DNA from: an uncultured Eubacteriales bacterium
GTDB lineage: Bacteria; Acidobacteriota; Aminicenantia; Aminicenantales; Aminicenantaceae
Assembly (NCBI GenBank): GCA_964347035.1
Contig: CAYFXE010000002.1
Location: 17,692 to 81,691 of the forward strand
DNA length: 64,000 nucleotides
Direction of reading: 5' to 3'
A program made the translations under genes and the position numbers. This document shows positions 4,759 to 40,059 of this stretch, one piece after another (positions within the stretch are counted from its first letter, which is position 1; each line of letters opens with the position of its first letter). The notes below the pieces were generated by a model. The model was not told the origin of the DNA, searched no databases, and saw only the letters and a list, made by a program, of their open reading frames with translations.

Positions 4759-5259
4759 ATGAGAAAAAAAATGTCTATTTTCCTGTCGGTGGCTTTATTT
4801 TTATTTTTATCATGCCAGACAAAAGCAACAACAGACATAGGACAAATTGAGACGAAGATCCAAATGGCGACTAAATACCTTCTTGGCCCAGCCGGACCCG
4901 GAGAAGACGCTAAGGAAGGGTTTAAGTTGCTCGTGGCAGCGATCGAGATGGCTTCTTTAGAGGCGGAATTTCCGTCAGAGTTCAGAGAGAAAATATCAGA
5001 GGCTCGAGGGCTTTTCGAGTCAAACTCTATCTTCGATCAAAAAGGCATCGATCTACTCAACGAGTCTTATTTTTTAGTGAACGACGGGGTGGGATTTCAG
5101 ATGCCAGAGAGTATATCCAGCATCGAACAGGCTGTAGAGTATGCCCGTCAACAAATCGATTCGGCTCGGGAGAATCTCAAGAAAGGAGAGGTCGGTGAAT
5201 GCGCCCGCGGCCTTCTCGAGGTCGCTCTGATAGTCGTGACCCCGATGATTCAGAAATAA
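4759..5259 (+). CDS. small lipoprotein of unknown function
   Basis: GGAGG lies 5 nt upstream of the ATG at 4759. Signal peptide with lipobox 'LFLSC'. The longer ORF-track start at 4660 would run through the repeat element. Confidence 0.6.
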   Translation: MRKKMSIFLSVALFLFLSCQTKATTDIGQIETKIQMATKYLLGPAGPGEDAKEGFKLLVAAIEMASLEAEFPSEFREKISEARGLFESNSIFDQKGIDLLNESYFLVNDGVGFQMPESISSIEQAVEYARQQIDSARENLKKGEVGECARGLLEVALIVVTPMIQK

Positions 5260-8914: not shown

Positions 8915-10450
8915 TTAATTTCGTCCCTCAATATCTTTCTCCATATATCGAAGCCATTTCGCCATAAGCTCCTTGTTCAGATCCAGCGGTGGTTTGGCGT
9001 CCTCAGGAAGAAAAGGTTTGTACGGATGCTCAACAGAATAAGCTTCAAACTCATCCCGCAGTTTCTTAAGCTCTTTCGGCTTGGTCATCAAATCGATGGC
9101 TGAGGCCGCCATTGCCTTGGCTCCGGCGTTTAACCCTTTCCAAGCCGTTGAACCGTAGTTGCAGGCGACTGAAGACCAGTGGTGCCCGATAGCCCCCGGA
9201 ACCTGGCCGGGAAACCTTATCGTGGCTGTAGGGGCGATCAGAGTGACATCACCAACATCCGAAGACCCTCCTCCGACAAAAAATTGGCCCCTATCCCTGA
9301 GTTCTCTAACCTTTTTCGGCATACCTGTCTCTTCACGGCCGAGTTCCTTCTGCAAGGCCTTGGCAAAGGCCTGCTCTTCCTCTGTCCATTCGGGCATCCC
9401 GACGAGTTCGATGTTTTTCTGGAAAAGCTCTGCCGCCGCCTTGTTGGCATGCCGCTGGTGGACAGCCGCTAGAATCCTGGCTTCTGATAACTCCGTGTCA
9501 GAGGCGAGAGCGCCGGCCTTTGCGCAGTTGAGAACCCTCTCATACATTTCCTCAATTCTCTCGTCGCTGTTCCGGACAAAATACCAGACGCTGGCTTTAT
9601 CCGGGACAACATTGGGGGCTTCGCCTCCCCCGACGATGACGTAGTGCAAACGGTAAGTGTAGAACAGATGCTCACGGAGATAATTCGTGGCCACATTCAT
9701 GATGTCGACAGCATCGAGAGCGCTCCGGCCCCCCCAAGGGGATGCCCCGTGGGCGGTCCTTCCCTTGAATGTAAAGATGACAGAATACAGGGCGTTACCG
9801 CCTACGCCGTAGCTGGTGCCGAAACCGCTGCTGCTGTGGTTGTCGATAACTGCGTCCACATCATCGAACAGTCCGGCCCGGATCATGTAGGGACGGCTGA
9901 CAAGGGTCTCCTCAGCCGGCGAACCAAAAATTTTGACGGTTCCCTGGAAGCCGTGCTTGTCCATGGCTTGTTTGATGGCGATCGCTGCTGCTGAAGCGGC
10001 CGTACACATAGTGTTGTGACCGCAGCCGTGACCTGGAGCTCCGTCGACGATCGGATCCTGCACGGAAACCCGTCCCTTTTGAGAGAGCATCGGCAAAGCA
10101 TCATATTCACCAAGAATACCGATAACAGGCTTTCCTGAACCGTAACTGGCCACAAAACAAGTGGGCATTCCTGCCGCTCCCCGTTCGACAGTAAATCCAG
10201 CTTCTTCGAGTGTGTCAGCCAGAAGCTTGGATGATTTGAATTCCTGCATCCCCAATTCGGCGTACGACCAGATGGTATCGGAAATCTTCCCGAATTTCTC
10301 GACAACCTCAGGTTGGCTCAGCCAATCCAGCACGAACTTCTTCTCTTTTGAGATTTTTTCCTTTGCCAGACCAGATGAGCTGACGAGGAACAGCAAGAAA
10401 AAGACACAGCATAGGGAGCAGGCCCTCTGTTTAAATTTTCGTGGTGTCAT
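8915..10450 (-). CDS. secreted M20-family amidohydrolase/peptidase (AbgB-like)
   Basis: Signal peptide; 'GHGCGHN' metal-binding motif; overall M20D-type layout. Confidence 0.8.
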   Translation of the reverse strand: MTPRKFKQRACSLCCVFFLLFLVSSSGLAKEKISKEKKFVLDWLSQPEVVEKFGKISDTIWSYAELGMQEFKSSKLLADTLEEAGFTVERGAAGMPTCFVASYGSGKPVIGILGEYDALPMLSQKGRVSVQDPIVDGAPGHGCGHNTMCTAASAAAIAIKQAMDKHGFQGTVKIFGSPAEETLVSRPYMIRAGLFDDVDAVIDNHSSSGFGTSYGVGGNALYSVIFTFKGRTAHGASPWGGRSALDAVDIMNVATNYLREHLFYTYRLHYVIVGGGEAPNVVPDKASVWYFVRNSDERIEEMYERVLNCAKAGALASDTELSEARILAAVHQRHANKAAAELFQKNIELVGMPEWTEEEQAFAKALQKELGREETGMPKKVRELRDRGQFFVGGGSSDVGDVTLIAPTATIRFPGQVPGAIGHHWSSVACNYGSTAWKGLNAGAKAMAASAIDLMTKPKELKKLRDEFEAYSVEHPYKPFLPEDAKPPLDLNKELMAKWLRYMEKDIEGRN

Positions 10451-15710: not shown

Positions 15711-16429
15711 CTCCAGACTTGTCCCTGATTTAGTCAGGGGTCATCTATCTGCTTCTCTTTGTCTTGTTAATCCTCATAATGATAACTCACCTCCTTCCTG
15801 CACTGAATAGAAGAGCAGCTTCAAAGACAGTAGAGGTCGTATCATGTATTTGCCGACTCTCTTTCTTTATTTATAGCGCTGTTTTTGTCAGGTTAAATTG
15901 CTGCGTATAAGCAGGCTGGAATGAGAGGTTCTGATTGTTTTGACAGCAGTCGTTTTGGCTGTAATGCCGGTAGAGATAATTATCGTTTCCTTTCCTTTCG
16001 CCTGTTGCTCCATGGGTTCGTAAAAATACCACCGGATTCGCTTATACTATTAGGGCATCCTAATATGGCGGTGTTTCGTATCTATGCGCTAAGAAACATT
16101 GTTGGTTCAAATACAGCGGTAGTTTTGCCTTATACAATGGCCCGCGAAAAATGATACAATGGTGCCAGACCCAGAAAGCATTGGATTATATCAATACCCG
16201 TTATGACGTCAACGTCGTTGCGAAACGGGCTCAGACAACCGGTTTAGACTATATAATTCTGCCAGGAGACATGTCGAATGTACCAGGATGGAAATCAATT
16301 GCTAAGGGGCAATAATGGACTGTGTACGCGCCAAACTAAAACTGAGCCAAAATAAAGTATGTATTGAAGTTGAAAAATAATTTCAAATTTATGTGCGTTT
16401 TCTATGCTTAACTTTGTGAGGAGTGTACG

Positions 16430-31198: not shown

Positions 31199-31813
31199 AT
31201 GTCTGAGAATATCTTCAAGATCGTTTACGTCATCGGCTTTGTAGCAGGATCTGTCATCCGGAATTCATGCGTATCTCGGGTTCCCCGCTGGTGGAAGAAG
31301 AAGCAGAACCTTGTCCAAGAAAAAGAGAGTGCACTGGATAAGTTAATCATGATTCCGGTTTTTCTGGGGATGGTTGTCATTCCGATTCTGTATTTGGTTA
31401 CATCCTGGCTGGACGCTGTCGATTATCACTTGCCAAATTGGGCCGGATTCGTGGCCGGTGGATTTGGAGTGGTATTTTTTGCTCTTGCCTTGTGGTTTCT
31501 TTGGCGATCCCACTTTGACCTCGGGCATAACTTTTCACCGGAACTCAAGATTAAGGAAAACCATGATCTCGTCACCAGTGGTGTGTATGCTCATATCCGG
31601 CATCCGATGTACTTGGCTCACTTCCTCTGGGCGATTGGTCAAGCCCTGCTTCTCCAGAACTGGATCGCGGGCTGGGCTTTTCTGGTGGCTTTCTTTCCCG
31701 TTTATCTACAGCGTTATCAGAAGGAAGAAAAGATGTTGAGCGACCAATTCGGTGAGGAGTACCGTGCATACATCCGTCGTACCGGTCGTATCCTTCCACG
31801 TTTTCGAAGATAA
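31199..31813 (+). CDS. isoprenylcysteine carboxyl methyltransferase (ICMT/PEMT)-family membrane methyltransferase
   Basis: 'VTSGVYAHIRHPMY' and 'QKEEKMLSDQFGEEYRAYIRRTGR'. Confidence 0.8.
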   Translation: MSENIFKIVYVIGFVAGSVIRNSCVSRVPRWWKKKQNLVQEKESALDKLIMIPVFLGMVVIPILYLVTSWLDAVDYHLPNWAGFVAGGFGVVFFALALWFLWRSHFDLGHNFSPELKIKENHDLVTSGVYAHIRHPMYLAHFLWAIGQALLLQNWIAGWAFLVAFFPVYLQRYQKEEKMLSDQFGEEYRAYIRRTGRILPRFRR

Positions 31814-31928: not shown

Positions 31929-32063
31929 ATTGTTTTGATTTTCTCTGGTGAGGCGTCTAAAATTCATACACTATAGCCAGAGAGAACATTTTTATTTTTT
32001 TTGGATTAATTTTAAATTACTGAAATTATTAAAAATATATCGATTTTAGAATAAATTCCGATC

Positions 32064-32079
32064 TGGCATCTTTTTTGCA
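32064..32079 (+). promoter_or_regulatory. sigma-54 (-24/-12) promoter motif
   Basis: TGGCATCTTTTTTGCA. The GG (32065-66) and GC (32077-78) are exactly 12 nt apart. It lies 46 nt upstream of the 32125 ORF. Confidence 0.65.
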
Positions 32080-32124
32080 TGGTCAAAAGTGGTGAGGGAA
32101 AATGGGATCAACAGGGACTGAAGG

Positions 32125-32994
32125 TTGACATATCAAAAAAAATACAAAGGATTGAACGTCAGTGAACTTAAGGTTAGCGTTTTGTTGGCTATCCTCATCT
32201 TGGTTCTCTCCGCTGCTACAAATTCTTGTTTATCGTTTAAATTTCTCAGGTCTATATCTAGGGAAGATTATTTCAGCCAACCCCGGAATGATCCGTATGT
32301 CCTGGAATTAAGAGAAGGGACATCCGAACTTCTTTATTACGGCGCTTTTCATAAGGTCGACCTGGAACACCCTCAGTTCATGGATATCGAGGAGAGGTGG
32401 AAAAAATTTCAACCAACAGTTGCTTTCTGCGAGGGCATTATCTGGCCATTGGAAAAATCACGTAAAGAGGCCATTCGTAAACACGGCGAACAAGGACTCC
32501 TAAGATTTTTAGCCTCTCGTGATAACATCCCCATGAAATGTCTCGATCCTCCTCTGTATCGTCAGGCGGAGTATCTCAGAAGACGTTTCATTCCCAGCCA
32601 CATCAAAATTTACTTTATCTTGCGACAGGCTGCTATTAACCGGATGTTAAGAAGAGATATTGATGATTTAAGATATGTCGGTCGATTACTGAGAAGTTTT
32701 AAGGGGGTAAGTGGGTACGATTGCCCCCCGAATTCATTAGTTGATTTTGAATTTCTTGTCTCTAAGGTTTTTCCCGATCTTAGTGACTGGAGGATGATTT
32801 CTCCTTCTTTCTTTCATTCAGTGGAGCAAGGAAAATTCCTGGCCAAAATTCATCGCCAGCTGAATGAATTCCGAGATGATATCATGATTCGCAATATTAT
32901 GAACGCCTTGAAAAAAGGTGAGAGAGTTTTTGCATTGGTTGGGCGAAGTCATGTGGTGATGCAGGAACAGACCTTACGCACCGTGCTTAAATAA
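32125..32994 (+). CDS. hypothetical exported protein (weak TraB/Tiki/ChaN-like resemblance)
   Basis: TTG start on the track; the start is uncertain. Hydrophobic N-terminus. 'GAFH...CEG' and C-terminal 'LVGRSHV' recall the GxxH motifs of the Tiki/TraB superfamily. Confidence 0.4.
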   Translation: MTYQKKYKGLNVSELKVSVLLAILILVLSAATNSCLSFKFLRSISREDYFSQPRNDPYVLELREGTSELLYYGAFHKVDLEHPQFMDIEERWKKFQPTVAFCEGIIWPLEKSRKEAIRKHGEQGLLRFLASRDNIPMKCLDPPLYRQAEYLRRRFIPSHIKIYFILRQAAINRMLRRDIDDLRYVGRLLRSFKGVSGYDCPPNSLVDFEFLVSKVFPDLSDWRMISPSFFHSVEQGKFLAKIHRQLNEFRDDIMIRNIMNALKKGERVFALVGRSHVVMQEQTLRTVLK

Positions 32995-33185
32995 ATCAAA
33001 TAAGGTGTTCTTTTCCGTCTTTTTTAGCTCATTTCTCTTGATAATCACCCTCAAAAATCGTATCTTCATGTGATGACAGATTTCTCTCAATTGCGTATAT
33101 TCTGAGTGAGGAAAAAAACAAAATGATAAATAATCAAAGATTCCATGATTTCTTAAAACCATGTTGAATCTCTTGGGGGGAAGCC

Positions 33186-33995
33186 ATGAGTTCAAAAAGA
33201 CTATTAAATATGAGGGTGAGCGCAGGGAATCTGATGAAATACCTGGTTTTCCCGGCAGTGGGGATTTTAATCCTCTCGTCTTTTCTATTCCCACAGGAAT
33301 TGACCGGCGAAGAAATCATCCAGAAAGTCAACGACTTATACAACCCAGAGACGAGCTATGCCAAATCCAAGATGACGATCGTTACCACTTCTGGCCAAAA
33401 GAGGACTTTTCTATCTGAATCGTGGAGTATGAACAAGGGCGAGAAGAATCTTGTCCGCTATCTGGAGCCAAAAAGGGTCAAGGGACAGGCCGTCTTGATG
33501 CTCAACAACGCCGATGATATCTGGATGTTTTTCCCTCGGACGCAACGGGTGCGCAAGCTCGCTACCCATGCTAAAAAGCAGAAAATGCAGGGAAGCGATT
33601 TTTCGTACGAGGACATGGGAAGCGGCGATGCCTTCATCCAAGATTTTACATCTCGAAGGCTCGAGGACGAAGAAATGGAAGGATATGACTGTTACAAGCT
33701 TGAACTCACCCGAGTGGCGGACAGTGATCTTTCTTACTCGAGGCTCATCATCTGGGTCATCAAAGACAACTTTGTGCCGGTGGTCATTGATTATTACGAT
33801 GAGGATGATCCGGACCGATGGCTGAAGAGGCTGGTCGGGAGTGATATCCGGACTATCGATGGCATCCCGACGGCGATGAAGATCGTCATGTCTAACCAAG
33901 AGGATAACACCCAGACCGAAATGGAGATCGTGGAAATTAAATACAACATCGAGTTGAGCGCAGATATGTTTACCGAAAGGAGATTGAAAAAGTGA
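33186..33995 (+). CDS. LolA-like outer-membrane lipoprotein-sorting family protein
   Basis: '...LVRYLEPKRVKGQAVLMLNNADDIWMFFPRTQRVRKL...GSDFSYEDMG' is typical of the LolA_like family. The start may be the Met at 33234. Confidence 0.7.
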   Translation: MSSKRLLNMRVSAGNLMKYLVFPAVGILILSSFLFPQELTGEEIIQKVNDLYNPETSYAKSKMTIVTTSGQKRTFLSESWSMNKGEKNLVRYLEPKRVKGQAVLMLNNADDIWMFFPRTQRVRKLATHAKKQKMQGSDFSYEDMGSGDAFIQDFTSRRLEDEEMEGYDCYKLELTRVADSDLSYSRLIIWVIKDNFVPVVIDYYDEDDPDRWLKRLVGSDIRTIDGIPTAMKIVMSNQEDNTQTEMEIVEIKYNIELSADMFTERRLKK

Positions 33996-35182
33996 AGAGA
34001 TGGATTCTGGCAATAGTGATTTTTTCTTTTTGTTTTTCGCCTCTCGCTGCCCAGCTTGAGTTGGATCTTTTCGGATATTTCGAGTCTCAAATCTCAGGGG
34101 CTAAGATCAGAGGGAATTTCTACCAGCTTTACACCAATAAGCTGCGGGTGGACCTGAAATCTGCTCTCTCGGATAACATTACGTTTGCGGCCAATTTTGA
34201 TTACATCACCTATCACGGCAAGACCGAATGGAACATACTGGAATTCCTATCCCCCAGCATCACGTCGTCTATTCCGACCAGTATGCAGCCCTTTTATGTC
34301 CTCAATTTTTCTAACCGGAATTTTCTCGACAACGCTTATATCAAATTTTCTTCCGAGTATTTTGACCTCACGGTCGGGAAACAACAGATTTCTCTGGGCA
34401 CTGGGTATGTCTGGAACCCGACCGATGTCTTCAACATCAAGGATCTCCTCGACCCCACCTACGAACAACCCGGCCACAACGCCATCCGCCTGGACGTTCC
34501 GTTGGGGACGATATACACTTTCACGGCCCTGTACTCGCCCGATGATACCTGGAAGGAATCGGGCAAGCTGGTCCAGTTCAAAGGAAGAATTTCTCATTTT
34601 GATTATGCTTTTATCGTGATAGAGAAGGCCTGGCGCTTCCACGATTACACACGATTTAACTTACTCGAGATGAATTTTTTGGAATTACCCGAGAAACGGC
34701 AGCTGTTTGGAGGAAACACGGCTGGGGAACTCCTCGGCCTAGGAGTTTGGGTCGAGTATGCCTATAACAAAATGGAACTTTCAAAGGACTTCTACGAACT
34801 TGTGATCGGGACAGATTACACCTTTGATTTCCAGACCTACGTGATGGTCGAATACTACCGGAATACCTTGGGGAAAACAGATTATGAACAATATACGATC
34901 AATGATTGGATGCGGTTGTTTGCCCAAGAACAGAAGGCCGTTTCCCGCGACCAAGTCTATGCGTTTGTTCAGCATCCTGTGACGGACTTGATGAATTTGG
35001 GAATATCGAGCGTCTACAGCATTTCAGATAACAGCATTGCCTTGATACCTACCCTGAATTACTCCCTCTCGGACAATGTGGATGTTTTCGCCTACTTGAA
35101 TTTTAACTTCGGCAAGGAAGGGAAAGTTTTTGCCAGGAGTATGAGTGATGGGGGGTTGCTCCGAGTTCGCGTTTATTTCTAA
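33992..35182 (+). CDS. putative outer-membrane beta-barrel protein
   Basis: GTGA overlap with the upstream gene; signal peptide; alternating amphipathic pattern; terminal '...RVRVYF'. Confidence 0.55.
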   Translation: MKRWILAIVIFSFCFSPLAAQLELDLFGYFESQISGAKIRGNFYQLYTNKLRVDLKSALSDNITFAANFDYITYHGKTEWNILEFLSPSITSSIPTSMQPFYVLNFSNRNFLDNAYIKFSSEYFDLTVGKQQISLGTGYVWNPTDVFNIKDLLDPTYEQPGHNAIRLDVPLGTIYTFTALYSPDDTWKESGKLVQFKGRISHFDYAFIVIEKAWRFHDYTRFNLLEMNFLELPEKRQLFGGNTAGELLGLGVWVEYAYNKMELSKDFYELVIGTDYTFDFQTYVMVEYYRNTLGKTDYEQYTINDWMRLFAQEQKAVSRDQVYAFVQHPVTDLMNLGISSVYSISDNSIALIPTLNYSLSDNVDVFAYLNFNFGKEGKVFARSMSDGGLLRVRVYF

Positions 35183-35207
35183 TCGGTGGAGATGAAGGAG
35201 AAGAAAA

Positions 35208-38045
35208 ATGAGAGAAAAGATCCTGAAAAAATTAGCTAGCTGGCATGCCTCTCATCCATGGAGGATGCTGATTGTTGTGTTACTTCTTACTGTTTTCTTC
35301 AGTGCTTTTGCTGCTCAATACAGAGTGACCATGCAGTGGTCGGACCTGCTGCCAACCGGAGATAAGAGGACGGTTCAATTCAACAAAATTATCGATGAGT
35401 TTGTCTCCTCGACGAGCCTCGTCGTGCTGGTCCAAGGGGAGGAGGAACGGATCAAAGAATTCGCAGATGTTCTTGCCCCTCGTATCCTCGAGGCCAGAGA
35501 TTCCAGTAAGAACACCTCCCTCCAGAAAAAAATCGGCAAAAACCAGGAAAAAATAGAGAAGCTTAAGGTTAAAGGAAAGGAAGAATCAAAAATAGCCGAA
35601 CTCCAATCCGAGATCAGAGAACTTCAGTCTCAGATAGATAAGCAAATGTTTCAGCGCGTGGATTACAAAACCCCAGTTGAATTCCTGAGAAACCATGGGC
35701 TGATGCTTGTCAAAGAAGAGGATTTAAAAAACGTCAAGGACATATTCATGGATCCCAACCTGGATGCTCTGTTAGTCAACATCAACAACTCGATGGAGAA
35801 GGAGTATGTGGGCCAGGAGGAGTCGATCTCGACCCGGGAGAAGGAGGACGGAGCCTTTGTCTTCTTGGATGGCATCCAGAACCTGGTTCTCACCCTGCAA
35901 AAGGTGGTTCGAGGGGAAGAGGTTGCCGAAAAGGAAGTTATATCGGCCGGAGATAAGCTTCTTTTAGGCGAGCCCTATTTTATGTCCTACGACAAGAAGG
36001 CGCTCATCCTCAACGCCATTCCTAACTTTTCTATCGTCGATCAGTATCTTCTGGTTTATGCTACAGACACAGTCGGGGAAATTGTCGATGAGCTTTTGAG
36101 GGATTATCCGGATGTGGAAGCTGGCTTAACAGGCACAATCGCTGTTGAACGAGACGAGAATGTCTATGTCAATAAAAGCTTGGGCTCTACGACAGTCATT
36201 GCCCTGATATCCATCCTGGTTCTTCTCATGTTGTCTTTCAGGATGTGGGTGGCTCCTATCCTGGCTTTATCCAACCTCATGCTGGGCTTGGTCTGGGCCT
36301 TAGGGGCGGCCTTGTTGGTCGTTGGCCAGCTGAACTTGATGACGGTCATGATGGCTGTCATCCTTCTCGGGCTGGGTGTCGATTTTTCGATTCATATGAT
36401 ATCAGGATTCACCGAATGGCGGGCAGCCGGAGACAATATCGCTCAGGCTATGGAGAAGACATTCATCAAGAGTGGAAAGGGAATCCTGACTGGAGGTGTG
36501 ACCACGGCCTTTGCCTTCATGGCTTTGATCATCTGTCGCTCCCGCGGCCTTAAGGAAATGGGCATTGTCACTGGAACAGGCCTGCTGGCCATCCTGCTGG
36601 CCACGTTCCTGTTTCTCCCAGTTTTATTGGTGTTCAGGGAACGTCGCATCGACAAAAAGATTGGCACTGGAGCCAAAAAATTTGTCCGTCGGGATATCAG
36701 TTTTCGGTTTCTCGGCCGGACCTGCCAATGGTTGGGTAAGCACTATGTTTTTGCTATTATCGCTTCCATCTTGATCAGCGCTTTCATGGTTTGGTCAGCC
36801 CTCAAGATCACCTTCGACCATAATTACTTGAACATGGAACCCAAAGGATTGACCTCGATTGCGCTGCAAGATGTCATCATGGAGAAGTTCGATTTGAGCA
36901 TGGACTACGCCATGGTTTTGACGGATGATGTTGAAGAGAGCCGGAATCTGTCAGAGAAATTCCGCGATCTTGGTTCTGTCGCCGTCACCGAGGATATATC
37001 GGCTTTTCTGCCCTCTACGGAACAGCAGGAGCGAAGAATTCCGCATCTCCTCGAGATTCGCCAGAGTATCCAATCTGGCTCTAACAGATCAGATGTGCTT
37101 CCTGAGGTACTGCCTGGTCTGCGCCAAGAAATCGAACGGTTAGAGATGAACATCATAGAAATGCAGGACATGGCTTATCTAGGGGGGCATGACAAGGTAG
37201 ACAATAAATGCAAAGAGATTGTGGGCGATCCGGATAATCCCGATTCCAGGAATATCATCCAGGAATTGCTGGAGTTGATGAACACAGATGTTGCTTTGTT
37301 GACAGCCGGCCTCTCTCGGTTCCAACAGCATTTTGCTCCTCATTTCCAGGAATCAGTGGTTAAGATGTGCTCGGTCGAGCCGGTAAACCTAGAGGATCTC
37401 CCGGACAACATCCTGGACCGGTACAGCAACAGAACCAGAGATCAATTCTTGATTACGGTTTTACCTGCAGGCCATATATGGCAAGATGCGAAATTTCTCG
37501 ACCGGTTTGTGGATGACCTGGAGCGGGTGAGTGACAAGGCCACCGGGATGCCTCCTGTTTTCCTCGCTCTGATCCGCATCATCGCTCAGGACGGCCAAAA
37601 CGCGGCTCTGTTGACCCTGGCCGTTGTCTTCCTTCTCCTGTGCGTGGATTTTATGAGCCCTCGGAAGGCCTTGTTAGCCATGATTCCGCTTGCCCTCGGA
37701 ATGTTCTGGATGGTCGGGTTGATGTACCTGACTGGTATGCAACTGACGATGATGAATGTCATGGCCCTTCCTATTATCATAGGTATCGGTATTGACGACG
37801 GCGTGCACATCATCCATCGCTGGAAACATGAAGGGAAGGGAAAAATCCGGACGGTTTTTTCCAGCACAGGGAAAGCGATCTTTCTCACCTCGTTAACAAC
37901 CATGTTAGCCTTTGGATCGCTGGTCTTCTCTGTTTTTAGAGGGTTTGGTCACCTCGGAGGAGCCATGTTCCTGGGTGTGGGTGCCTGCTTCCTGACCACG
38001 GTCATCATCCTCCCAGGATTTATCGGCATGATCGAAAAGAAATAG
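35208..38045 (+). CDS. MMPL/RND-superfamily transporter (HpnN-like architecture)
   Basis: Two 6-TM bundles ('LLGLGVDFSIHM', 'IIGIGIDDGVHIIHRW') separated by large periplasmic domains, plus a Lys/Glu coiled-coil insert near the N-terminus. Confidence 0.8.
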   Translation: MREKILKKLASWHASHPWRMLIVVLLLTVFFSAFAAQYRVTMQWSDLLPTGDKRTVQFNKIIDEFVSSTSLVVLVQGEEERIKEFADVLAPRILEARDSSKNTSLQKKIGKNQEKIEKLKVKGKEESKIAELQSEIRELQSQIDKQMFQRVDYKTPVEFLRNHGLMLVKEEDLKNVKDIFMDPNLDALLVNINNSMEKEYVGQEESISTREKEDGAFVFLDGIQNLVLTLQKVVRGEEVAEKEVISAGDKLLLGEPYFMSYDKKALILNAIPNFSIVDQYLLVYATDTVGEIVDELLRDYPDVEAGLTGTIAVERDENVYVNKSLGSTTVIALISILVLLMLSFRMWVAPILALSNLMLGLVWALGAALLVVGQLNLMTVMMAVILLGLGVDFSIHMISGFTEWRAAGDNIAQAMEKTFIKSGKGILTGGVTTAFAFMALIICRSRGLKEMGIVTGTGLLAILLATFLFLPVLLVFRERRIDKKIGTGAKKFVRRDISFRFLGRTCQWLGKHYVFAIIASILISAFMVWSALKITFDHNYLNMEPKGLTSIALQDVIMEKFDLSMDYAMVLTDDVEESRNLSEKFRDLGSVAVTEDISAFLPSTEQQERRIPHLLEIRQSIQSGSNRSDVLPEVLPGLRQEIERLEMNIIEMQDMAYLGGHDKVDNKCKEIVGDPDNPDSRNIIQELLELMNTDVALLTAGLSRFQQHFAPHFQESVVKMCSVEPVNLEDLPDNILDRYSNRTRDQFLITVLPAGHIWQDAKFLDRFVDDLERVSDKATGMPPVFLALIRIIAQDGQNAALLTLAVVFLLLCVDFMSPRKALLAMIPLALGMFWMVGLMYLTGMQLTMMNVMALPIIIGIGIDDGVHIIHRWKHEGKGKIRTVFSSTGKAIFLTSLTTMLAFGSLVFSVFRGFGHLGGAMFLGVGACFLTTVIILPGFIGMIEKK

Positions 38046-38187
38046 TAAAACAGTCAACAATTTCCAGTTTTCAGTTAAAAATAAGATTTTTTTCTGATTA
38101 CTGGCAACTGTTGACTGACAACTGTCAACTGAATCCTGATTGACCGAATTCGATGTCTGTGGTATATGAAAAAATAGGAAAACATCG

Positions 38188-40059
38188 ATGGCGCACATTG
38201 TATTGAAGCAACTTGACTCCCAAGTCAGAAGCTTTGCTCTCGCTAAAGAAGTGACGACCATAGGGAGAAGCTTGGCCAATGACATCACCATCATAGATCC
38301 CTTCGTCTCTCGCGTCCACGCTAAAATCATTGAAAAGGAAGGGGGCTATGAGATTCTCGATCTGGGCGCCAAGCATGCCGTCGAAGTCAACGGTAAGATC
38401 ATCTCCCGCCAACGTCTTAAAGAAGGCGATAAGATAACACTAGGGAGCTCTCTGCTGATCTTCCAGTCTGAAGATGTCTGTGCGGCTAAAGACGTGACCT
38501 TTCTTACCAACGAAGAAATGTCAGAGGAGTCTGTAGAAGTAGCTTCCTTCGATTCGAAGAAGACCGTTCCTTTCTCCATCGAGGATGTGGATGTCAAGGA
38601 TTTCGTCACCCTCCACAAGGATCATCAAAGACTGATGCTACTTTATCAATTCGGCGGGATAATCAACATATACCTCGAAGATATCCATCATCTTCTTGAA
38701 GAAATTTTAAGCGCTGTCTTCAAGACCCTGGATGCAGAAAGAGGCTTCATTGCCCTCGTGGATGAAGGAACCGGAGAGTTGACCTGCGAGCTCGTTCGAG
38801 ATAGTTCATCTGGTATGACACCGGAAAGACTCGAGGTTAGCAAGACGATCATCCATAAAGTGCAGAGGGAGGGGCTCGCCATCCTGACGATGAATGCCCT
38901 GAAGGACAGCCAGTTCGAGAAAGCAAAGAGCATCCAAGAATACAGCATCAGGTCAGCCATATGTGCTCCCCTCCTGTTCCGGGGAGAAGTTCTCGGTATT
39001 GTCTACTTAGACAATCGGGCTTCAGCCGGAGTTTTTTCAGAGGAGGATCTCAAGTTTTTGACGGCCATTTGCCATCAGGCGGGGATTGCCATGGGGAATG
39101 CTCATCTTCACAGACAGGTGGTTCAAGAGAACATCCGGCTGGAAAATGCGCTGAGACCAAAATTCGAGATTTTGGGTGAATCGGCGAAGATGAAAAAGGT
39201 CTTCAGCACCATGAAAAAAGTCTCTCCCTCGGATATCACTGTGCTTATCCAGGGGCAGACCGGGACCGGAAAAGAAATCGTGGCCAAAGCGATCCACACT
39301 CTTTCTCCGCGAGCTAAAAATCCTTTCGTGGCGGTTAACTGTGCAGCCATTCCGAGAGAGTTGATCGAAAGCGAACTTTTCGGCCATGAGAAGGGGGCCT
39401 TCACCGGAGCCATCAGCACTCGTCTGGGGAAGTTCCAGATAGCCCATGGTGGAACCATTTTTCTCGACGAAATCGGTGACATGAGTCTGGAGACGCAGGC
39501 TAAAGTTCTGCGGACATTGGAAGAAAAGGAATTCCAGCGGATCGGCGGGACAAAGACCTTTCAGGTGGATGTGAGGGTTATTGCCGCTACGAACAAGGAT
39601 CTGGCGAAGGAAGTCGAAAAGAGAAAATTTCGAGAGGATCTGTATTATCGATTAAATGTGGTCTCCATCGACCTCCCCGCCTTGCGGGACAGGAAAAAGG
39701 ACATCATTCCCTTAGCAGAGCATTTTGCTGGTGAGGGAGTAAAGATTTCCCCTCAAGCGAAGAAACTGCTGCTGTCCTACGAATGGCCCGGCAACGTGAG
39801 GGAATTGAAAAACAATATAGAGAGGGCCGTCGTTATGGGAGATGGGAAAGTCATCCAGCCTGAGGATCTTCCCCATAACCTTAGAACTGGCGGAAAGATT
39901 ATCCCTTCTCCTCTAGAGTCGCTCGAGCAGTTGGAAGAAGACCATATCATCCGGGTTCTGCGACAAACAGGTTGGAATAAGAGTGATGCGTCCAGGGTAC
40001 TCGGGATCACCCGTCAGACCCTGGATAACAAAATCGAGAAATACAAAATAAAAAAGTAG
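38188..40059 (+). CDS. sigma-54-dependent transcriptional activator with FHA + GAF + AAA+ + Fis-type HTH domains
   Basis: FHA: 'TTIGRSLANDITIIDPFVSRVHAKI'. GAF region. Walker A 'GQTGTGKE'. Sigma-54 contact loop 'GAFTGA'. C-terminal 'RVLGITRQTLDNKIEKY'. Confidence 0.9.
   Translation: MAHIVLKQLDSQVRSFALAKEVTTIGRSLANDITIIDPFVSRVHAKIIEKEGGYEILDLGAKHAVEVNGKIISRQRLKEGDKITLGSSLLIFQSEDVCAAKDVTFLTNEEMSEESVEVASFDSKKTVPFSIEDVDVKDFVTLHKDHQRLMLLYQFGGIINIYLEDIHHLLEEILSAVFKTLDAERGFIALVDEGTGELTCELVRDSSSGMTPERLEVSKTIIHKVQREGLAILTMNALKDSQFEKAKSIQEYSIRSAICAPLLFRGEVLGIVYLDNRASAGVFSEEDLKFLTAICHQAGIAMGNAHLHRQVVQENIRLENALRPKFEILGESAKMKKVFSTMKKVSPSDITVLIQGQTGTGKEIVAKAIHTLSPRAKNPFVAVNCAAIPRELIESELFGHEKGAFTGAISTRLGKFQIAHGGTIFLDEIGDMSLETQAKVLRTLEEKEFQRIGGTKTFQVDVRVIAATNKDLAKEVEKRKFREDLYYRLNVVSIDLPALRDRKKDIIPLAEHFAGEGVKISPQAKKLLLSYEWPGNVRELKNNIERAVVMGDGKVIQPEDLPHNLRTGGKIIPSPLESLEQLEEDHIIRVLRQTGWNKSDASRVLGITRQTLDNKIEKYKIKK

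Follow-up and report, generated by a model that had tools for sequence, protein, structure and literature searches.

The locus described here raises the question of whether five genes lying on one strand behind one strong promoter form an operon. It occupies positions 32064 to 40059 of a 64,000-nucleotide stretch of contig CAYFXE010000002.1, hereafter the window, from an uncultured bacterium of the Aminicenantales whose metagenome-assembled genome (G000) measures 2.98 Mb and is 85% complete. The list of open reading frames (ORFs) for these 8 kb gave five genes, g1 to g5, all on the plus strand, which encode a TraB/GumN-type protein, a LolA-like periplasmic protein, an outer-membrane barrel, an MMPL permease, and a sigma-54 activator with FHA and GAF domains. 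An earlier note, made from the sequence alone, had taken them for a single sigma-54 operon, but two conserved promoters inside the block (P2 and P3), together with a hairpin and a synteny that varies among relatives, speak otherwise. We conclude that the block is probably a juxtaposition of three units, namely g1, a g2-g4 transport cassette, and g5, rather than one dedicated operon; the modular architecture, taken alone, we hold with good confidence. What was observed directly, in the window and in a comparison set of ~90 related loci, is which genes are present, how they are ordered and conserved, and where footprints of promoters and operators lie; gene tables or 6-kb flanks of these loci were used for synteny. 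The earlier note was right that five same-strand genes follow the 32064 promoter, since the ORFs lie where it placed them, and right about the identities of all five, which are borne out by domain, family, or fold evidence. The features of the block are as follows.

31954..31970, plus strand: enhancer-like box CGTCTAAAATTCATACA, a variant (3 mismatches) of the TGTCTAA-N3-TTAGACA palindrome, ~110 nt upstream of the -24 element
32064..32079, plus strand: sigma-54 (-24/-12) promoter P1, TGGCATCTTTTTTGCA, an exact match to TGGCAY-N5-TTGCW, 45 nt before the g1 start
32125..32994, plus strand: g1, TraB/GumN/Tiki-superfamily protein, 289 aa, with a signal peptide and a conserved Cys35 (Pfam PF01963 and family alignment)
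33057..33101, plus strand: operator-like palindrome ATCGTATCTTCATGTGAT (degenerate ATCACA-N6-TGTGAT) overlapping the sigma-70-like promoter P2 (promoter scan, conservation)
33186..33995, plus strand: g2, periplasmic LolA_like protein (PF17131), 269 aa, with a signal peptide and no lipobox (Pfam)
33992..35182, plus strand: g3, outer-membrane beta-barrel, 396 aa, with no Pfam family and a remote DUF1302 link (AlphaFold2 model, Foldseek, hhalign)
35208..38045, plus strand: g4, HAE3/HpnN-like RND permease (MMPL), 945 aa (Pfam, NCBIfam)
38051..38117, plus strand: hairpin of 67 nt directly after the MMPL stop codon, a candidate terminator or insulator (-32.5 kcal/mol, z = -5.9, 0 of 200 shuffles as stable)
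38140..38168, plus strand: sigma-70-like promoter P3, TTGACC (38140-38145), a 17-nt spacer ending in TGG (extended -10), and TATATG (38163-38168)
38188..40059, plus strand: g5, FHA-GAF-AAA+(sigma-54)-HTH_8 enhancer-binding protein (Pfam FHA, GAF, Sigma54_activat, HTH_8)

The cassette and its neighbors occur apart in related genomes

To describe the surroundings of the cassette, we tallied 80 species-level loci from GTDB genomes, with barrels 49-86% identical. The organisms are mostly Aminicenantes, and some are labelled KSB1, Calditrichia, Neomarinimicrobiota, or Fermentibacteria; regulators were found by tblastn with few queries, and the regulator counts are lower bounds. The neighbors were distributed as follows.

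LolA_like gene directly upstream of the barrel gene: 71 of 73 evaluable loci
MMPL gene adjacent downstream of the barrel gene: 47 of 57 evaluable loci
MMPL gene upstream of the carrier gene instead: at least 1 more locus
TetR gene upstream of the cassette: 22 of 59 evaluable loci
MalT/LuxR-type regulator upstream of the cassette: 11 of 48 evaluable loci
g1 upstream of the cassette: 2 of 48 evaluable loci
sigma-54 activator downstream of the cassette, same strand: 2 of 40 evaluable loci

Because the LolA_like gene adjoins the barrel gene almost throughout and some loci have no adjacent MMPL gene, the carrier-barrel pair appears to be the tightest unit. Of the nine loci in which no MMPL gene is adjacent, two were annotated. 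In L067 a restriction-modification island comes after the barrel gene; in L037 (4763-10390), from an Aminicenantes genome, a GNAT gene and an HlyD-AcrB (HAE1) pair take the place of the MMPL gene behind carrier and barrel, and these two may be able to work with another type of pump. The two activator-bearing loci are L036, a close relative of the window, and a locus that matches over the sigma-54 domain only, at 47%. Co-occurrence of the trio with an FHA-GAF activator, by which the earlier note had proposed to check its reading, is rare among the species loci.

Close relatives share the window's order of g1, cassette, activator, and receptor-like genes (L029, L032, and L036, with barrels 84, 93, and 86% identical, respectively). 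Relatives at ~70% barrel identity have g2-g3-g4 only, with the identical 4-nt overlap and 25-nt gap; the upstream gene is a MalT/LuxR-type regulator in L025 and L026 and a TetR gene in L027 and L028, and neither g1 nor the activator was found in these four loci. We consider it most likely that g2-g4 constitute a self-contained, autonomous cassette, and that the five-gene arrangement is a lineage-specific juxtaposition.

One lineage (L033 and L034, with g1 69% identical) lacks the cassette and retains g1, the activator, and the receptors, in the order g1, a 53-aa ORF, activator, CarboxypepD_reg protein, receptor, and sulfatase-TPR protein. The spacer between its g1 and activator genes contains collinear, in-frame remnants of the MMPL gene, including ATGGAGCCCAAAGGATTGACCTC (22 of 23 nt, codons 543-550, blastn E = 2.8e-5), an LIRII segment, and the last codons at the 3' end (18 of 18 nt versus L032). 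The scar (L033 8931-9399, also present in L034) reads MEPKGLTSI...LIRII...GLIEKKK-stop and contains a (GA)n microsatellite, and it retains the P2 operator and the P3 promoter. As an ancestral empty site into which the cassette was later inserted, this locus was rejected, because the MMPL remnants show a deletion.

The units are also separated in complete genomes. On the complete Aminicenantes chromosome G301, the activator ortholog (65% identical over residues 1-622, its full length) lies at 2.09 Mb beside a CarboxypepD_reg receptor-type gene, and g1 and the cassette (L047) lie at 0.96 Mb, 1.1 Mb from the activator. The complete genome G302 carries the cassette (L039) and has no activator ortholog, only paralogous sigma-54 domains. 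This natural variation, in which the cassette has been deleted or stands far from the activator, shows that the cassette is independent of the neighboring sigma-54 regulon. The synteny, the deletion lineage, and both complete genomes argue against the single operon of the earlier note, and the FHA-GAF activator does not look like a functional partner of the transporter.

Each unit has a candidate promoter of its own

The promoter scan identified P2 as ATGACA-17-TATATT at 33073-33101, with 10 of 12 matches. P2 and the overlapping operator are kept in four syntenic loci (window, L029, L032, and L033); the operator of the window and L032 is ATCGTA-N6-TGTGAT, that of L029 and L033 ATCACA-N6-TGTGAT. 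The same operator-promoter block stands upstream of the LolA_like gene in 13 of 60 species loci and, because nearly all of these also have a MalT/LuxR-type regulator upstream, we infer that this regulator binds the palindrome, which would be its candidate operator. In loci with a MalT-type regulator, a conserved small ORF of ~82 aa (MKYQIRVEGQLNSHWSDWFEGMT...) was seen between the operator-promoter block and the LolA_like gene (L025 8998-9246; L044 and L047 ~5014-5230); it is absent from the window.

A sigma-70-like promoter dedicated to the activator, raised as a possibility in the earlier note, gains support from conservation in four of four orthologous loci and from the extended -10. The block TTGACCG...CTGTGGTATATG..AAAATAGGA is kept in the window, L029, L032, and L033 inside otherwise diverged spacers, and its conserved layout, TTGACCG-N14-TGTGGTATATG-...-AAAATAGGA, corresponds to -35 and -10 elements separated by a 17-nt spacer that carries a TGn extended -10. 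The hairpin stands ahead of it; no comparable structure was found after g1 or g5, and in the relatives other repeats, inverted or heptameric, occupy the post-MMPL position. Between the MMPL and activator genes, the spacer of 142 to 460 nt is taken up by short repeats and long inverted repeats that are particular to each lineage (CAACTGTTGACTGACAACTGTCAAC in the window at 38051-38135, (GTAACTCA)n in L029 at 9645-9925, and the GTCATTCCCGCGGAAGCGGGAATCC type in L032 at 15923-16300), which may be small mobile or repetitive extragenic palindrome (REP)-like elements.

The most economical reading of the transcript boundaries would be that P1 serves g1, with read-through possible, P2 the cassette, and P3 the activator. 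The cassette would then be expressed from its own sigma-70-type promoter overlapped by a palindromic operator, and g5 would be transcribed from its own conserved promoter behind the strong hairpin.

Several points weigh against so clean a division. The promoters and the hairpin were called from sequence and conservation. When folding was compared with shuffles, no terminator or hairpin was found 3' of g1, so a sigma-54 transcript could enter the cassette and add to its expression, which would make the operon proposal partly right for g1-g4. The left operator half is degraded in the window (ATCGTA), and the 85%-complete genome contains no ortholog of the MalT-type regulator, only GerE-domain matches at 37-39% identity, so P2 may be weak here. 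Last, at least two lineages, the clade of the window and that of L044 and L047, have g1 beside the cassette, so a functional link between g1 and the cassette is possible.

These points could be taken to mean that the cassette lost its MalT/LuxR-type activator and is now expressed mainly by read-through from the g1 sigma-54 promoter, having joined the FHA-GAF regulon despite an independent origin. Such a history would explain why the genome search gave no MalT-type ortholog, why the left operator half is degraded in L032 as well as in the window, and why no hairpin follows g1, and it fits the conservation of the arrangement in three close relatives. However, the regulator may be missing from the incomplete assembly only, the -35 and -10 elements of P2 are intact, L029 and L033 retain perfect palindromes, and one member of the clade deleted the cassette and did not lose the regulon. 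We regard this history as unlikely, if still deserving of serious weight.

The single operon g1-g2-g3-g4-g5, in which the FHA-GAF activator comes last and controls the transporter and possibly itself through Ser/Thr phosphorylation and a small ligand, seems to us quite improbable. Its appeal is that all five genes lie on one strand behind a perfect -24/-12 promoter, with no terminator in the g1-g2 interval, and that the order of g1, cassette, and activator is kept in L029, L032, and L036. It is hard to reconcile, however, with conserved internal promoters and a strong hairpin ahead of g5, with an activator that adjoins the cassette in only two of the species loci, with a relative that deleted the cassette yet retains g1, activator, and receptors, or with an activator that is 1.1 Mb away in G301 and has no ortholog in G302. 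Three juxtaposed units remain our preferred reading, and the locus is a caution against calling runs of same-strand genes behind one strong promoter operons.

The sigma-54 promoter of g1 and its possible regulon

The sigma-54 promoter that the earlier note had placed at 32064 is upheld both by its exact match to the consensus and by its conservation upstream of the g1 ortholog in all six related loci examined; it is the same as in the window in L032 and L033, cGGCATATTTTTTGCA in L029, and TGGCATCAATCCTGCA in L044 and L047. Counting sigma-54 motifs in the window does not by itself give a significant excess (allowing 1 mismatch, 6 sites versus 3.4 expected, with 15 of 100 shuffles reaching 6), so the case for P1 rests on conservation. 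At the same ~110-nt distance, the upstream box reads TGTCTAAAATTCATACA in L032, and its right half, TCATACA, is retained in L029 and L033; L044 and L047 have a perfect TGTCTAAAAATTAGACA palindrome upstream of g1, with TGGCATCAATCCTGCA ~95 nt further downstream. The five best pairs of a box and a sigma-54 promoter in the genome all lie within this window. Two sigma-54-like promoters outside it (G000 C5 ~45694 and C32 ~2319) are preceded, at -149 and -94, by boxes that resemble TGTCTAA-N3-TTAGACA except for 2 mismatches; the C5 promoter adjoins another sigma-54 activator gene, and both sites may be further regulon members or chance matches. We propose that P1 and the upstream box would drive g1, and that g1 would share the TGTCTAA-N3-TTAGACA regulon with the downstream receptor-like and sulfatase-like operons. 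The main gain for the regulon would be g1 as a conserved target.

Tested alone on TraB_PrgY_gumN (PF01963), g1 stayed under the cut-off (E = 8e-4, 19.8 bits versus 26.8); 54 of the 57 members of its family match PF01963 (best E = 1.1e-7). In the family alignment, G73, H76, E103, E122, R250, G273, and H276 are invariant, which we take to be the GxxH...E...R...GxxH pattern of active members of the Tiki/TraB superfamily, and Cys35 is near-invariant just past the core of the signal peptide. The g1 product is probably a secreted, lipid-anchored, hydrolase-like lipoprotein. The TTG start pairs with ATG in L032 in the alignment. The AlphaFold2 model is confident (predicted local distance difference test [pLDDT], 92.5), and a fold search against the PDB gave no convincing match (a ciliate complex IV subunit at E = 5e-3 and a template modeling score [TM] of 0.39; the erythromycin-esterase-like protein 2rad at TM 0.27), so the TraB/GumN assignment rests on sequence profiles. 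Homologs of g1 at ~50% identity stand in unrelated gene contexts and also occur without the cassette; beside the cassette, g1 is found in a second lineage as well, in L044 and as a fragmentary copy in L047.

The FHA-GAF activator and its candidate targets

As expected of a phosphothreonine-reading FHA domain, that of g5 has an intact pocket, with R27, S41, H44, and N68 present; g5 also has a GAFTGA loop and Walker motifs. The gene ends at 40059, and the first TTAGACA box region of the next promoter begins at ~40086, in agreement with the 27 bp given in the earlier note. Orthologs of g5 adjoin receptor genes whether or not the cassette is present, and we propose that g5 would activate g1 plus the downstream receptor-like and sulfatase-like operons.

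A search with Pkinase for the partner Ser/Thr kinase, which the earlier note had suggested, returned 29 Hanks-type kinase domain matches in the genome, which also encodes five FHA proteins; none of the kinase matches is on the window's contig, so a partner kinase is not assignable by proximity. The FHA domain would most likely take its input from one of the genome's many Hanks-type kinases. Together with ~13 sigma-54 activator paralogs, these kinase matches make an unusually dense signaling repertoire for a genome of 3 Mb.

Like enhancer-binding proteins of the NtrC/NifA type, g5 has an AAA+ domain with GAFTGA, a Fis-type helix-turn-helix, and palindromic upstream sites 70-110 nt from the -24/-12 elements. 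It differs from those with FHA or GAF sensors in combining both sensor domains, and its candidate targets are receptor-like and sulfatase-like envelope genes plus g1, not the adjacent transporter.

The three cassette proteins

The overlap of the g2 and g3 genes (GTGA, 33992-33995) and the 25-nt gap between the barrel and MMPL genes, both described in the earlier note, are present, and ribosome-binding (Shine-Dalgarno) sites were found at the overlap and in the gap.

On Pfam, g2 matched LolA_like, now renamed TP0789, at E = 1.7e-53 (181.5 bits) and passed the cut-off of DUF1329 (24.4 bits versus 23.1); no LolA family was found at E <= 0.01, leaving PF17131 and DUF1329 as its sole Pfam matches. 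The literature on TP0789 yielded nothing informative, and the solved relatives in the PDB (9tp6, 3bk5, 4z48, and 3buu) come mostly from structural genomics, without assigned function.

The AlphaFold2 model of g3 is a porin-like beta-barrel (pLDDT 83, predicted TM 0.75), and the protein has a signal peptide and ends in ...RVRVYF. Foldseek matched it to 16- to 18-strand porins and AlgE (TM range 0.45-0.58, AlgE 0.57); since these are generic matches, no specific function follows from the fold. No Pfam family was found for g3, nor any DUF1302 match at E <= 0.01, and ten distant members of its family likewise match no barrel family in Pfam. Among 47 family members, 7 gave weak DUF1302 matches (best E = 0.0021) and 23 gave weak Wzi matches. 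When the g3 family was aligned with the genome's own DUF1302-positive paralog, hhalign reported 87.6% probability (E = 3.5e-6, 329 columns), and g3 and this paralog have an FD-x-x-G-x-Q...NP(T)D motif in common. Clustered at 50% identity, the g3 family comprises 1,828 clusters at E <= 1e-3, 641 at E <= 1e-10, and 174 at E <= 1e-30, and a homolog was found in 20 of 301 sampled Acidobacteriota genomes.

In g4, the MMPL family of Pfam matched twice above its cut-off (E = 1.3e-36, 126.7 bits). On NCBIfam, all scores stayed below the cut-offs: 353.9 versus 751.85 for HpnN (TIGR03480), 251.9 versus 351.9 for HAE3 (TIGR00921), 269 versus 1400 for BstA, and 216.5 versus 1100 for NF052374 (HpnN). The nearest solved structures are those of HpnN (5khn, 6wu0). 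By sequence, g4 is HAE3-like, below the trusted family thresholds.

The genome contains a second envelope cassette (contig C11, locus L035, 5136-10415), consisting of a DUF1302 barrel (446 aa; 34 bits on Pfam, above the cut-off), TetR, MMPL (782 aa), and LolA_like (268 aa) genes, in an order that differs from that of the window cassette.

A probable compact relative of a described transport class

We consider the cassette most likely to be a compact relative of the class that combines a DUF1302 barrel, a DUF1329 or LolA-like carrier, and an HAE3-type RND pump, as in AmeABCD. In Castellaniella defragrans, AmeABCD consists of a DUF1302 barrel, a DUF1329 carrier, a BNR protein, and an HAE3 pump, and its deletion lowers monoterpene tolerance and Nile Red efflux (PMC6394551). 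Genes for DUF1302, DUF1329, BNR, and RND proteins are cofit in Shewanella, Kangiella, and Pseudomonas, for which export of a cell-wall component was proposed (10.1101/072470); in Pseudomonas putida, where a LuxR-type regulator controls the genes, mutants in them show poor fitness on Tween 20 and butyl stearate (10.1101/2020.07.04.188060). DUF1302 has been modeled as an 18-strand barrel (TM to AlgE ~0.55), and AlphaFold-Multimer gave an interface predicted TM of 0.84 for its complex with DUF1329 (PMC13499233). Like AmeABCD and the cofit clusters, the cassette encodes an RND permease (HAE3-like here), a periplasmic protein of the LolA superfamily, and an outer-membrane barrel together, often beside a LuxR-type regulator, and the cargo is assumed to be hydrophobic in both.

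The differences are in size and composition. The carrier is of the short PF17131 type (269 aa versus ~450 aa for DUF1329 in AmeABCD), the barrel has 396 aa and is unseen by Pfam DUF1302 (versus ~600 aa), the permease is longer (945 versus 787 aa), and the gene order here is carrier, barrel, pump, unlike that of AmeABCD. Two findings count against the assignment to this class: AmeABCD has a BNR/Ycf48-like propeller, whereas no such ORF was found between 30299 and 46360 or in the related loci with gene tables, and the link of barrel to DUF1302 is remote (the hhalign probability and the seven weak matches above).

Two further systems look similar. In Thalassolituus oleivorans, TOL_3187, an MMPL-LolA_like fusion, and the adjacent porin were induced 42-fold or exclusively on n-C28 (PMC6304351). 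The same three functions stand side by side there, and the fusion argues that pump and carrier act together; here the two are separate genes, and TOL_3187 comes from a gammaproteobacterial alkane degrader. Operons of Porphyromonas (PG1178-81) and Prevotella with TetR, ABC, MMPL, "lipoprotein-sorting protein," and hypothetical genes are among those most strongly induced by iron depletion (13- to 220-fold) and nitric oxide stress (84-fold) (PMC10434189, PMC11018363). Going by annotation only, they combine the same three parts, with a carrier of the PF17131 type, and have a local TetR as in the cassette relatives counted above and in the genome's second cassette; they also hold ABC ATPase genes and are known from expression data only. 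HpnN, the nearest solved RND permease and the best NCBIfam match for g4, acts without a dedicated carrier or barrel, and g4 scores under half of its cut-off. In the Lol pathway, LolA is partnered with the LolCDE ABC transporter, whereas the partner of g2 is an RND permease.

LolA-like carrier/barrel/RND cassettes are very widespread, and the literature describes the class rather than its chemistry. The earlier note had considered that the trio might match an already characterized export system with a known substrate; the class has indeed been described, the substrate has not. To this class, the locus adds a compact form of three genes that lacks the propeller subunit, a subfamily of barrels outside Pfam (the 641 clusters given above), and the candidate operator ATCACA-N6-TGTGAT, which tracks MalT/LuxR-type regulators.

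Direction and cargo of transport

A trans-envelope route, which the earlier note had suggested, is, for a hydrophobic cargo, the standard, unproven reading of this class (AmeABCD, PMC6394551; 10.1101/072470). In the mechanism that we regard as narrowly probable, the proton gradient would drive g4 to capture a hydrophobic or amphiphilic molecule, either in the periplasm or in the outer leaflet of the inner membrane; g2 would shield it inside the cavity of its LolA fold, and the porin-like barrel g3 would admit it into or through the outer membrane. Three considerations lead us to favor export over import: the direction in which RND pumps are known to work, the phenotypes seen for Ame, and the TetR genes so often found beside the cassette.

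Inward transport, in which hydrophobic substrates such as long-chain alkanes, fatty esters, and terpenes would enter through the barrel with the LolA-like protein as periplasmic shuttle, appears unlikely to us, and yet the alkane and fatty-ester data keep it a live rival. To our knowledge, the characterized RND/MMPL permeases all export from the inner membrane or periplasm, which counts against it, and no catabolic genes flank the window cassette. Induction of the Thalassolituus fusion and porin on n-C28 (PMC6304351), the poor fitness of the Pseudomonas putida mutants on Tween 20 and butyl stearate (10.1101/2020.07.04.188060), and the impaired growth on monoterpenes caused by an ameB insertion (PMC6394551) would all fit uptake. 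However, the Ame deletion led to more net influx of Nile Red and to reduced tolerance, in keeping with efflux (PMC6394551), and local regulators of the TetR type (22/59 loci) are typical of efflux pumps.

A more elaborate proposal would combine export with uptake. After loss of its LuxR-type activator, the cassette would have been wired into the FHA-GAF/sigma-54 regulon through read-through from g1 and, with the adjacent TonB-receptor-like genes, would form an export-and-recapture circuit gated by Ser/Thr phosphorylation. The molecule exported by the MMPL pump might, for example, be a lipophilic metallophore or a surface lipid, whose loaded form the receptors would take up; MmpL4/5, which export mycobactins, offer a parallel. 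The strong induction of the look-alike Bacteroidetes operons by iron starvation (PMC10434189) would fit such a circuit, which we nevertheless consider highly improbable.

Very improbable, in our estimate, is an RND-driven Lol-like route that would deliver a lipoprotein, such as the product of g1, into or onto the outer membrane. The LolA fold of g2, the signal peptide and conserved Cys of g1, and the adjacency of g1 and cassette in two lineages would suit it, but we know of no RND pump that extracts lipoproteins, and a sorting role is unlikely because g1 and the cassette occur apart: they adjoin in only two of 48 species loci, g1 homologs are found without the cassette, and the L033 lineage suggests that g1 reaches its normal location without g2-g4. 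The idea that g4 transports hopanoids (like HpnN) or sterols (like BstA), with the cassette moving polycyclic triterpenoids to the outer membrane, draws on the best NCBIfam matches and the nearest solved structure of g4, and we rejected it as scarcely credible because the scores fall far below the family cut-offs (354 versus 752 and 269 versus 1400), the search of the 85%-complete genome for a squalene-hopene cyclase gave a weak, partial match in a 364-aa frame but no full enzyme, and no triterpenoid biosynthesis genes stand beside the cassette in any locus examined. Export of a hydrophobic or amphiphilic molecule by an autonomous cassette remains the reading that we prefer.

A neighboring methyltransferase-like gene

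Just upstream of the g1 promoter, the window carries a gene resembling isoprenylcysteine carboxyl methyltransferase (31199-31813; NCBIfam NF040696, 225 bits). It is absent from this position in L029 and L033, and it is likewise found in L032.

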